Of a stretch of 31,156 nucleotides of DNA, positions 7,237 to 8,758 are shown one piece after another (the first letter of the stretch is position 1; every line of letters starts with the position of its first letter). Origin of the DNA: a virus. Its lineage: Duplodnaviria > Heunggongvirae > Uroviricota > Caudoviricetes. Both the position numbers and the translations under genes were made by a program. The stretch covers positions 1 to 31,156 of IMG/VR virus record IMGVR_UViG_2778261417_000015; one strand, written 5' to 3'. Under the pieces are notes generated by a model. The model saw nothing but the letters and a program-made list of their open reading frames with translations. It was not told the origin of the DNA and searched no databases.

Positions 7237-7295
7237 GTACCAATAGTTCATTGATGTAAAGTACCGAAAGTACATTTAAAGTGAATGGAAAGTTC
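7237..7295. promoter_or_regulatory. Candidate OL operator cluster (left early promoter region)
   Basis: 13-bp sites GTACCAATAGTTC (7237-7249), GTACCGAAAGTAC (7261-7273) and a weaker GAATGGAAAGTTC (7283-7295), spaced 23-24 bp and matching the two sites in the cI-cro intergenic region. Confidence 0.4.
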
Positions 7296-7385
7296 ATTAG
7301 CAGGCATGTGCATGAACTTTAAGGAGAAATAATTTTTAGATTTTGTTTGTGGTTAATATCTTGAGGAGGAGGCGGATTGGATATT

Positions 7386-7973
7386 TTAGAGGTTCGTCAC
7401 ATCTACTAATCTTGTGTGTCCGTTGTAAGTTGCGAAAAGGCTGCCGTCTGGCTCAACAACTGAAAGTTCAGCGTATCGAAGGAAATCAGTTTTGATAACA
7501 GACATCAACACCTCTCCAGTATCGATGTTTATTACCTCAACCCGATTCGCGTAAAAGTCATCTTTGTTTTTGCTACCGGCAAACGATAGGGCTATGTATC
7601 GGCCAAATTCTGATATGGCTGAACAAATGAGGTGAGTGGATGTTTCTATCTTGAATAACTCTTTCCCGGCGTTATCCATGACTATGGCTGCAGCCATGTT
7701 GTTGTCTTTGCCGGTATGGACTGAAAATAAAAATCGTCCGTTAACTGCTATGCATTGAGGTTTTGGAGAGTGATTCTCTCCAAGTTTGATCATGAATAGG
7801 AATCTTTCATTTTTCATAACCGCCAGCGTGTCGTCCCTGAAGTTGCTTTCATCACGCTTAAAAGCCCCTAATTGCCACCGTTTATCTTGGCTTAATTTGC
7901 ACGTAATAAGGTGGTCGCCAAGCTCGTATAAGACGCTGCCATCACTCAGTTCTGTAACTCTATTTGCTTCCAT
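7386..7973 (-). CDS. Unknown 195-aa protein immediately downstream of cI (rex-like position)
   Basis: Intact ORF. Its GAGGAAG RBS overlaps the cI stop codon, with an 11-bp intergenic gap. Markedly AT-rich relative to the core genes. No transmembrane segment seen. Confidence 0.65.
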   Translation of the reverse strand: MEANRVTELSDGSVLYELGDHLITCKLSQDKRWQLGAFKRDESNFRDDTLAVMKNERFLFMIKLGENHSPKPQCIAVNGRFLFSVHTGKDNNMAAAIVMDNAGKELFKIETSTHLICSAISEFGRYIALSFAGSKNKDDFYANRVEVINIDTGEVLMSVIKTDFLRYAELSVVEPDGSLFATYNGHTRLVDVTNL

Positions 7974-7984
7974 GCTTAACTTCC

Positions 7985-8740
7985 TCAGCTATGAAATCTA
8001 TATGCCCTAGACTGGCTTACCAGAACTTTCGCGCAGATACGGAGAGATGAAAAATCACCGTCCTCGATATACCAGGTCTCATATTTTTTATTGTCAGAAA
8101 TCACTGCTAATTTTTTGTGCTGTTTTTGTAGCCGTTTGATATAGAGATCATTGTCCAGAACGAAAATATAAATGCCGTCACCGTCAAAACAGTCGATGCT
8201 GATGTCGACGAATATCTGGTCGCGGGGCTCGAACGTGCCTGACATCGAATCGCCATTAACAGCAATCATTTTTATATGGTCTGCAGGGCGCCCACCAAAG
8301 ACAGCATGAGCCTCTTCGGTCGAATACTCTATGGATCTAATAGTCTCAATAAATTCATCTCGCACAAGAATTCCTTGCCCAGCACTAGCCTGAATATCAA
8401 AAACGTCTACTCGAAAAGAATCATCCCTCACTGCCATATGCCCTTCGGATATGCCATCTGCTCCACTATCGCCTAAAAGGTAAGACGAAGATGTGCCAAT
8501 TATAGCCGCCAATTCCTGCAGCTTCCCACGTCTCGGAATGGATTCCCCATTGAACCACTTGCTTACCGCTTTCGGCGTTAGCTTCATTCGTTTGGCTATT
8601 TCAGCCTGACGACCATGAGCAGGTAAACCAGCTTTATCACAGGCCAGCGCTAGCCGTTGGGAGAATTCAGTACGCGCTTTTTCTTCTTGAACCATAGGTT
8701 CAATCATAATATCACTTGCGTGAACTATCAGTTCCGACAT
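7985..8740 (-). CDS. cI: CI-type prophage repressor (HTH_XRE plus S24 LexA-like peptidase domain), 251 aa
   Basis: N-terminal HTH (QAEIAKRMKLTPKAVSKWFNGESIP) and C-terminal S24 autopeptidase motifs (AVNGDSMSGTF ... LYIKRL). Divergent from the cro-like gene. Start may be internal or leaderless. Confidence 0.85.
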   Translation of the reverse strand: MSELIVHASDIMIEPMVQEEKARTEFSQRLALACDKAGLPAHGRQAEIAKRMKLTPKAVSKWFNGESIPRRGKLQELAAIIGTSSSYLLGDSGADGISEGHMAVRDDSFRVDVFDIQASAGQGILVRDEFIETIRSIEYSTEEAHAVFGGRPADHIKMIAVNGDSMSGTFEPRDQIFVDISIDCFDGDGIYIFVLDNDLYIKRLQKQHKKLAVISDNKKYETWYIEDGDFSSLRICAKVLVSQSRAYRFHS

Positions 8741-8758
8741 AATATGTACTTACAGTTC
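8716..8758 (+). promoter_or_regulatory. Candidate pR promoter with two OR operator sites
   Basis: TTGCGT (8716-8721), 16-bp spacer, CATAAT (8738-8743). Palindromic GAACTATCAGTTC (8722-8734) sits in the spacer and GTACTTACAGTTC (8746-8758) just downstream. Confidence 0.45.

Follow-up and report, generated by a model that had tools for sequence, protein, structure and literature searches.

Predicted repressor operators of the HK022/933W class in the immunity region of a lambda-like prophage

The closest described counterparts of the predicted immunity switch at positions 7232-9015 of the virus record IMGVR_UViG_2778261417_000015 (31,156 bp, analysed in full and hereafter called the window) are the switches of phages HK022 and 933W. 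In HK022, the repressor CI binds cooperatively to adjacent operators and loops the left operator region (OL) to the right operator region (OR) (PMC8053113). In 933W, there are five natural 15-bp symmetric sites, in which G at position 2, A at position 4, and C at position 5 are invariant. Position 3 is A or T, with T preferred, and position 6 is T or C, with C preferred. Position 1 has little effect on binding, and fine-tuning comes from the non-core positions. Mutational work indicates that the 933W repressor contacts its operators via S41, K42, and K46 (PMC3317979 for all these points on 933W).

The reference records are X16093 for HK022, HM173637 for HK75, and EF517298 (phi24B, labelled "immunity region similar to 933W") for the 933W type. 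In the HK75 record, the operators carry the label "similar to bacteriophage HK022", and the immunity regions of the two phages are 95% identical. The HK022 immunity region was reportedly studied by Oberto and colleagues in 1989 and by Carlson and Little in 1993.

Region 7232-9015 of the window is very probably the immunity switch of a lambda-like prophage of the HK022/933W family, with the predicted sites serving as operators for cI and Cro. The prophage is probably from Enterobacter or a close relative.

Operators, promoters, and repressor of the switch

The initial annotation placed five 13-bp sites of the pattern GTACY-N3-AGTTC (GTACYNNNAGTTC) at the early promoters pL and pR, three in OL and two in OR, and took them for repressor operators. 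A direct read confirms the position and the sequence of each. Three lines of evidence speak strongly for their assignment as pL and pR operators, namely the predicted homology to HK022 and 933W operators, the identical geometry, and the co-occurrence of the motif with a particular repressor recognition helix. The features of the switch are as follows; operators and candidate operators are given without strand.

7232..7237, minus strand: pL -10 CATCAT, from the promoter-scan hit TTTACA-17-CATCAT; ATGATG on the plus strand, as in the annotated HK022 pL -10
7236..7250: OL1 operator TGTACCAATAGTTCA (core 7237-7249, GTACCAATAGTTC), exact motif match in the pL spacer; HK022 homologue TGTACTTAAAGTTCA
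7255..7260, minus strand: pL -35 TTTACA, from the same scan; TGTAAA on the plus strand, as in the annotated HK022 pL -35
7260..7274: OL2 operator AGTACCGAAAGTACA (core 7261-7273, GTACCGAAAGTAC), motif match of 17.2 bits abutting the pL -35; HK022 homologue AGTACCAATAGTACA
7282..7296: doubtful weak OL site TGAATGGAAAGTTCA (core 7283-7295, GAATGGAAAGTTC), 6.7 bits; the position annotated as oL3 in the HK75 record
7313..7327: candidate distal OL site TGAACTTTAAGGAGA, 7.5 bits, with a good left half only; centre 53 bp from the OL2 centre
7985..8695, minus strand: cI repressor, 236 aa, with the Pfam domains HTH_3 (E 5.5e-8) and Peptidase_S24 (E 2.1e-18)
8688..8702: OR3 operator TGAACCATAGGTTCA (core 8689-8701, GAACCATAGGTTC), exact motif match of 19.7 bits, centred on the cI ATG at 8695; HK022 homologue TGAACCATAAGTTCA
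8703..8708, minus strand: candidate -10 TATGAT of the cI promoter pRM, from the promoter-scan hit CTGATA-17-TATGAT
8716..8721, plus strand: pR -35 TTGCGT, aligned with the annotated HK022 pR -35 TTGACT
8721..8735: OR2 operator TGAACTATCAGTTCC (core 8722-8734, GAACTATCAGTTC, 5-bp arms perfectly palindromic), motif match of 16.7 bits in the pR spacer; HK022 homologue TGTACTATCAGTTCC
8738..8743, plus strand: pR -10 CATAAT, identical to the annotated HK022 pR -10 CATAAT
8745..8759: OR1 operator TGTACTTACAGTTCA (core 8746-8758, GTACTTACAGTTC), exact motif match of 20.9 bits over the predicted pR start; HK022 homologue TGAACCATAAGTTCA
8776..9015, plus strand: cro-like gene, assigned to phrog_35 (transcriptional repressor)

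The operator pattern is rotationally symmetric, and the asymmetric form was replaced by GWACY-N3-RGTWC (GWACYNNNRGTWC). With up to one mismatch, the asymmetric pattern has nine matches in the 31,156 bp against 1.65 expected. The symmetric pattern has exactly five against 0.24 expected, starting at 7237, 7261, 8689, 8722, and 8746, and all five are inside the two control regions. None of 100 shuffles gave five matches. The five exact sites extend to a 15-bp symmetric operator, T-G-(A/T)-A-C-(C/T)-N3-(A/G)-G-T-(A/T)-C-A, with the half-site n-G-(A/T)-A-C-(T/C). Its invariant and variable positions coincide exactly with those of the 933W sites.

The number of OR sites has to be revised from two to three. 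OR3, which was missed, lies on the cI start codon and is the fifth exact match to the symmetric pattern, which the weak OL site fails. The spacing of 23-24 bp given for the initial sites stands for the strong pairs, which are 24 bp apart, but not for the weak OL site; the centre-to-centre distances are 24, 22, and 24 bp. The perfect palindrome, OR2, was correctly placed in the pR spacer. It sits between TTGCGT (8716-8721) and CATAAT (8738-8743), the homologues of the annotated HK022 pR hexamers.

A weight matrix trained on the sites of other loci only, with the window's own sites left out, yields the same 15-bp consensus. It ranks the five strong sites 1 to 5 of ~31,000 positions, at 16.7-21.2 bits, and only 0.02 sites of 16.7 bits or more are expected in the window. 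OL1 has the highest score (21.2 bits) and is conserved in 21 loci. Two further matches were rejected as operators. The match at 1136-1150 (TGAACCAAAAGTCCA, 14.4 bits) is inside a NinX-family gene that is unlinked to the immunity module in other genomes; a match as good has a ~6% chance per window, and it is probably a chance match. The match at 7456-7470 (11.2 bits) is inside a 195-aa gene between cI and OL, has a ~31% chance per window, and shows no specific conservation.

The HK022 record lists three oR and two oL sites together with the hexamers of pR and pL, and these align base for base with the sites in the window; the operator annotation of HK75 is in agreement. The pL hexamer pair was also found independently by the promoter scan, and the pL -35 is nearly invariant across the family alignment. 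The centres of OL1 and OL2, 7243 and 7267, flank it and are 24 bp apart in all relatives. The OR centres, 8695, 8728, and 8752, lie at 0, -33, and -57 from the cI ATG, as in HK022 and ~15 other loci. With few exceptions, the relatives keep the distances of 33 bp between OR2 and OR3 and of 24 bp between OR2 and OR1. OR3 has the same position and a near-identical sequence in HK022 and the 933W type, and its centre is at 0 from the ATG in ~15 loci.

The relatives compared (numbered with L below) were Escherichia coli, Citrobacter, and Klebsiella loci and 41 loci from a species-level genome collection. A motif search in relatives with the same type of cI was one of the checks proposed for the operators, and the sites recur at the same offsets in at least 20 loci. 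All loci with at least 52% cI identity over the N-terminal domain have the strict motif near the repressor start; L024, with 48% identity, has a different layout. In nearly all such loci, the sites are at 0, -33, and -57 from the cI ATG; a 24-bp-spaced pair downstream of cI is likewise present in most of them, at a distance that changes with the gene occupying the interval between cI and OL. The sites are conserved in Enterobacter, Escherichia, Kluyvera, Klebsiella, Brenneria, Pantoea, and Shigella. In ungapped alignments, the core is retained and the inner bases of OR1, OL1, and OL2 are variable; at OR1, this applies to the inner 5 bp.

The motif accompanies the recognition helix of the repressor. 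Two sites, and in almost all cases three, are present at the repressor start or a short way upstream of it in every fetched locus with the helix TPKAVSKWFN. The pairing extends to Volucribacter, Haemophilus, and Gallibacterium (Pasteurellaceae), Pseudomonas, and Providencia, where overall cI identity is 28-48%. These loci were found via the helix peptide, and the DNA motif is an independent observation; ~0.016 sites are expected by chance per 260-bp region, as calculated from the degeneracy of the pattern. The motif is missing where the C-terminal domain alone is shared or where the helix is different or interrupted (L025, L026, L027, L029, and L030). One locus, with an HK022-like cI (58% identical) and three OR sites, is on a 1026-bp contig labelled Streptomyces sp. 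(L015, NZ_JBEOWA010000103.1). Most likely, this contig is contamination of enterobacterial or phage origin in the assembly.

The cI protein of the window is 59% identical to HK75 cI over 233 residues and 31% identical overall to the 933W-type cI, mostly in the N-terminal domain. The recognition helices of the window (TPKAVSKWFNGES) and HK75 (TPKAISKWFNGES) differ by one conservative residue, while helix 2 and the N-terminal arm differ between the two proteins. The window cI fits the helix pattern (T/S)(P/S)K(A/G)(V/I)SKWFN and has K42 and K46, which correspond to contact residues of 933W. Four residues, A105, G106, S150, and K187, do not vary across the family alignment. On the model of LexA and lambda cI, they would be the Ala-Gly cleavage site and the Ser and Lys residues of self-cleavage. 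The Cro-like protein is 46% identical to that of HK75, 53% to that of HK022, and 51.5% to that of the 933W type.

The start of cI differs among annotations. The longest open reading frame for cI in the window starts at 8740, and the starts of the RefSeq relatives are equivalent to 8707 or 8740. The RefSeq homologues (L002-L005 and L008) start 12 or 45 nt upstream of a conserved MVQ, giving products of 240 or 251 aa, and longer products of this kind would extend across OR2 and the pR -10. The predicted true start is MVQEEK at 8695, giving 236 aa, because MVQ starts are found in the HK022 construct, in the 933W-type record, and in most homologues. The HK022 cI construct begins with ATGGTTCAACAGAAA, that is, MVQQK (loopometer supplement). 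The cI of the 933W-type record begins with MVQNEK, which fits the S41/K42/K46 numbering of the 933W paper. Most homologues start with Met-Val, usually MVQ, at the position equivalent to 8695. The starts at 8740 and 8707 were rejected on the annotated starts of HK022 and the 933W type and on the centring of OR3. With the start at 8695, the start codon is the centre of OR3.

No Shine-Dalgarno sequence is visible by direct read upstream of the ATG at 8695. The candidate pRM -10 TATGAT is at 8708-8703, and a figure of the loopometer supplement labels a "PM -10" of HK022 within 21 nt upstream of the cI ATG. Together, these suggest that the cI mRNA is probably leaderless or nearly so, and OR3 would then shut pRM at high repressor levels. 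An extended -10 (TG) for pRM is present in the window (TGATATTAT) but lacks conservation in HK022 and the relatives, and it was not relied on.

Binding of cI and Cro to the sites is expected from the homologues (PMC8053113 and PMC3317979); the affinity order, cooperativity, looping, and the position of pRM are likewise predictions. In the lysogen, pR would be shut by cI dimers bound cooperatively to OR1, which lies over the pR start, and to OR2, in the pR spacer. Dimers at OL1 in the pL spacer and OL2 against the pL -35 would shut pL in the same way. OR3, on the cI start codon and the probable leaderless pRM start, would let cI repress its own gene at high repressor levels. DNA looping, as for HK022 CI, probably joins the complexes at OL and OR, ~1.43-1.51 kb apart, with a possible contribution from one or two weak half-sites past OL2. 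Cooperativity and looping would be expected because the C-terminal domain of the window cI is HK022-like. RecA-stimulated self-cleavage of cI would lift repression, by analogy with LexA and lambda cI.

Several points weigh against this account of the switch. The position of pRM depends on a weak match to the consensus and on a label in an HK022 figure. The centre of OR2 lies ~33 bp upstream of the likely pRM start, where the operator would overlie any -35 hexamer, and lambda-style activation of pRM from -42 thus cannot be assumed. The whole OR region is conserved in relatives, and conservation by itself does not tell which bases serve the operators and which the promoters. Judged within the window only, the candidate third and fourth OL sites are statistically indistinguishable from chance.

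Recognition class and alternative explanations

The motif was initially taken to define the immunity specificity of the phage. This is an overstatement, as the core G-A/T-A-C-C/T is also found in HK022, in 933W, and in repressor loci of Pasteurellaceae and Pseudomonas. The core is common to at least three diverged module lineages (the window, HK022, and 933W) and to distant prophages, and thus it cannot by itself define a unique immunity. On sequence evidence, the motif marks a large shared recognition class, and the operator class is already characterised in HK022 and 933W. Cross-binding, and possibly cross-immunity, between the window phage, HK022, and 933W is plausible, since the window operators are within the HK022 range, OL1 differs from the 933W-type OL1 at 2/15 positions, and the 933W preferences fit.

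The sites may nevertheless be operators of a phage that is heteroimmune to HK022 and 933W, through positions 1, 6, and 7, the centre, or cooperativity. This possibility is a serious one, although its likelihood falls short of even. The cI protein is only 59% identical to the HK75/HK022 type and 31% to the 933W type, and its helix 2 and N-terminal arm differ from those of HK75; yet the recognition helix is one conservative residue off the HK022-type helix. At positions 1 and 15, C/G is favoured in 933W and T/A in the window, and fine-tuning in 933W comes from such non-core positions. Position 1 is, however, of little effect for the 933W repressor, which prefers GTAC and C at position 6 (PMC3317979). 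The C-terminal (cooperativity) domains of the repressors are diverged. The sequence of each window operator nevertheless lies inside the range spanned by the five HK022 sites, and OL1 is like the 933W-type OL1 at 13/15 positions.

A wider proposition is that one combination of helix and operator core (TPKAVSKWFN and GWACY-N3-RGTWC) is kept in modules that are otherwise 30-60% diverged, those of the window phage, HK022, 933W, and prophages of Pasteurellaceae and Pseudomonas, such that heteroimmune phages share one recognition code. It is offered tentatively and is rather doubtful. If phages are heteroimmune despite the common core, specificity would be set by site context, cooperativity, and the order of affinities instead of the recognition code. 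In that case, the two conserved half-sites that face each other past OL2 (7291-7296 and 7313-7318) would serve as an architectural element of the OL-OR loop peculiar to this family.

No new regulatory principle is revealed, and the result is ordinary annotation. Its value is that the cI start is fixed at 8695 and that pR, pL, and five operators are placed. With the switch assigned to the HK022/933W class, existing biochemistry can guide predictions of induction. The co-occurrence of helix and operator across several families of Gammaproteobacteria provides a simple rule for annotating prophage operators. The shared helix and core also raise the question of cross-immunity among these prophages.

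The sites beyond OL2 are less clear than the five strong ones. The weaker third OL site of the initial annotation, 7282-7296, scores 6.7 bits, and 2.7 equally good sites are expected per window by chance; on sequence alone it is no better than chance. Its AGTTCA half is kept in most of the 21 aligned relatives, and the positional conservation of this half is its sole support. The candidate at 7313-7327 contains TGAACTTTAAGGA, which is common to HK75 and HK022 and conserved in the family. In HK022, loop-like sensitivity to DNase I is reported within the 53 bp that separate OL2 from OL3 (PMC8053113, a secondary source). The HK75 GenBank record, in conflict with this distance, places oL3 22 bp from oL2. 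The 933W-type record annotates two OL sites and has no GAAC at the 53-bp position. We think that 7313-7327 is a more likely homologue of the footprinted HK022 OL3 than 7282-7296, because it is 53 bp from OL2, as stated for HK022, and because the 933W type, with two sites, is without GAAC there.

These half-sites are also part of an inverted repeat at 7289-7320, AAAGTTCAT-N14-ATGAACTTT, which includes part of the initial weak site. The repeat could be an RNA hairpin, for example, an end-of-operon structure of the cI transcript, instead of a weak operator pair. Its 9-bp arms are perfect, the loop is 14 nt long, repeat and loop length are retained in most relatives, and 92.6% of cells pair. The arms are, however, conserved in sequence with almost no compensatory change; there are two double changes, each in a single sequence, and 35 of 500 shuffles reach the observed covariation. 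Such scant covariation speaks more for half-sites bound by a protein than for an RNA hairpin. The sequence of the arms is exactly that of the operator half-site, TGAACT/AGTTCA, and the right arm fits the HK022 OL3 at 53 bp from OL2, as reported in PMC8053113. There is no U-run after the repeat on either strand, the promoter/terminator scan did not call it terminator-like, and no Rfam family matches it. A hairpin is therefore improbable, and half-sites for the repressor are the preferred reading of the repeat.

At the cI-proximal edge of OL, there is a further element at 7317-7336, TTTAAGGAGAAATAATTTTT. It is found as TTTAAGGAAATTTATTTTT in HK75 and HK022 and as ATAAGGAAATTTATTTTT in the 933W-type OL. 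The element adjoins OL with or without a gene inserted between it and cI (L009 and L052).

It is very unlikely that the motif is kept by shared ancestry and by promoter function (the -35, -10, and spacer of pR and pL) in the absence of repressor binding. Relatives do show high conservation of the entire OR region, down to the ATC at the centre of OR2 within the pR spacer, and the operator sites overlap or abut promoter hexamers. But the same eight core positions occur at five mutually non-homologous places, and OR3, on the cI start codon, is outside the lytic promoters. At OR1, OL1, and OL2, the core is retained while the inner bases are free to vary. The presence of the motif follows the recognition helix of the repressor, not promoters, and the mutation-tested half-site positions of 933W are exactly the invariant positions in the window (PMC3317979).

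Chance matches in AT-rich intergenic DNA, the level at which the weak site 7282-7296 and the matches at 1136-1150 and 7456-7470 do lie, are hardly credible as a source of the five strict sites, which cluster at two divergent control regions, exceed expectation in number as given above with no shuffle equalling them, and have the same arrangement in dozens of independent loci.

Neighbouring genes and the pL leader

The genes around the switch are listed first.

7386..7973, minus strand: 195-aa gene between cI and OL, from the open reading frame list; the position of rexAB in lambda
6596-6856: gene of 86 aa in the N position, phrog_21696
9113-9655, plus strand: gene after cro, YdaT_toxin family (E 8e-28), not a cII homologue

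The 195-aa gene has no match in Pfam, PHROGs, or PADLOC. A 588-bp hypothetical gene occupies the same position in L002-L004, and the DNA homology reaches L010 and L011. The closest E. coli and Enterobacter relatives carry the same gene, and others have different genes there, such as KilA-N. It is probably co-transcribed with cI and is a candidate for expression in the lysogen. The YdaT_toxin gene after cro is also found in the closest E. coli relatives (L002-L004 and L008), and L005 has a CII-family gene.

The pL leader (6979-7228, minus strand) is 92.6% identical to the OL-to-N leader of phi80 and ~93% identical to those of HK225 and many Stx phages. At the DNA level, the similarity to phi80 stops before the phi80 N gene. 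The 86-aa gene in the N position has no Pfam match, and its sole PHROG match is without known function. In the leader, a hairpin GGCGG-ATACC-CCGCC (7173-7187) is directly followed by TGCTTCTTTAACAA (7159-7172), which we take to resemble the rrn boxA TGCTCTTTAACAA with one extra base. Nested inverted repeats are observed at 6906-7012. One pair is GGTGTGGTGT/ACACCACACC (6906-6915 with 6977-6986), 10/10 complementary, and the other is GCTGGCCTAT/ATTGGCCAGC (6926-6935 with 7003-7012). This part of the leader may be a structured RNA. An Rfam scan of the whole window gave no match in the control regions or the leader repeats. The only Rfam match in the window is isrJ, an Hfq-binding small RNA first described in Salmonella, at 16803-16875 on the plus strand, with 69.9 bits against a gathering score of 37.

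Comparison with lambda, 933W, and HK022

The switch resembles that of lambda in its divergent cI and cro, its tripartite OR, and the 24-bp spacing of the cooperating operator pair. A LexA-like self-cleaving repressor, a probable leaderless cI mRNA, and probable OL-OR looping are further likenesses. The window operators are, in contrast, 15 bp long instead of 17 bp and unrelated in sequence. OR2 and OR3 are 33 bp apart, against 23 bp in lambda, and the window OL has two strong sites. OR2 is ~33 bp upstream of the likely pRM start instead of 42 bp, and the activation geometry of lambda is not reproduced.

The 933W-type operators, as annotated in the phi24B record, are as follows.

OL1: TGAACCAATAGTTCG
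OL2: AGAACTATTGGTACG
OR3: contains TGAACCATGAGTACG, on the cI ATG
OR2: contains AAAACTTTCAGTTCA
OR1: CGTACTGAAAGTACG

Both systems have five strong sites arranged as three plus two, with OR3 on the cI ATG, OR2 in the pR spacer, and CATAAT as the pR -10. The spacing of OR1 and OR2 is 24 bp in both, and OR2 and OR3 are about 32 bp apart in the 933W type and 33 bp apart in the window. The N-terminal domains are similar and share K42 and K46, on which specific binding depends; 933W-type phages also have a gene between cI and OL (stk). The differences are in the repressor and in the details of the sites. Overall cI identity is as low as 31%, and the C-terminal domain is diverged; the 933W repressor is reported to be non-cooperative at adjacent sites, whereas the window C-terminal domain is HK022-like. 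Residue 41 is S in 933W and P in the window and HK022. The outer positions (1 and 15) are often C/G in 933W sites and T/A in the window. The TGAAC half at the 53-bp position is missing from the 933W-type OL.

HK022 shares with the window an identical 15-bp operator consensus, the OR spacings of 33 and 24 bp, and the OL1-OL2 distance of 24 bp. In both, OR3 is on the cI ATG, OR2 is in the pR spacer, OL1 is in the pL spacer, and TGAACTTTAAGGA is 53 bp from OL2. HK022-like loci carry GTACTAAAAGTAC ~324 bp upstream of the cI ATG; in HK75, it is annotated as OFR, an antivirulence operator. The window differs in having no OFR site downstream of cro; none of the 25 best weight-matrix positions in the window falls in 9016-9112. 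HK022 has a putL-nun leader, whereas that of the window is of the phi80 type described above; the putL/putR antiterminator RNAs and nun of HK022 have no counterpart downstream of its pL, and a similarity search gave no HK022 or HK75 match over the leader 6979-7228. The YdaT-family gene stands where HK022 has cII. The extra 195-aa gene between cI and OL puts OL and OR ~1.43-1.51 kb apart in the window, against ~0.7 kb in HK022. At several window operators, the GAAC and GTAC halves are swapped. Judged by its sequence, the module of the window is a mosaic relative of HK022, distinct from HK022 itself.

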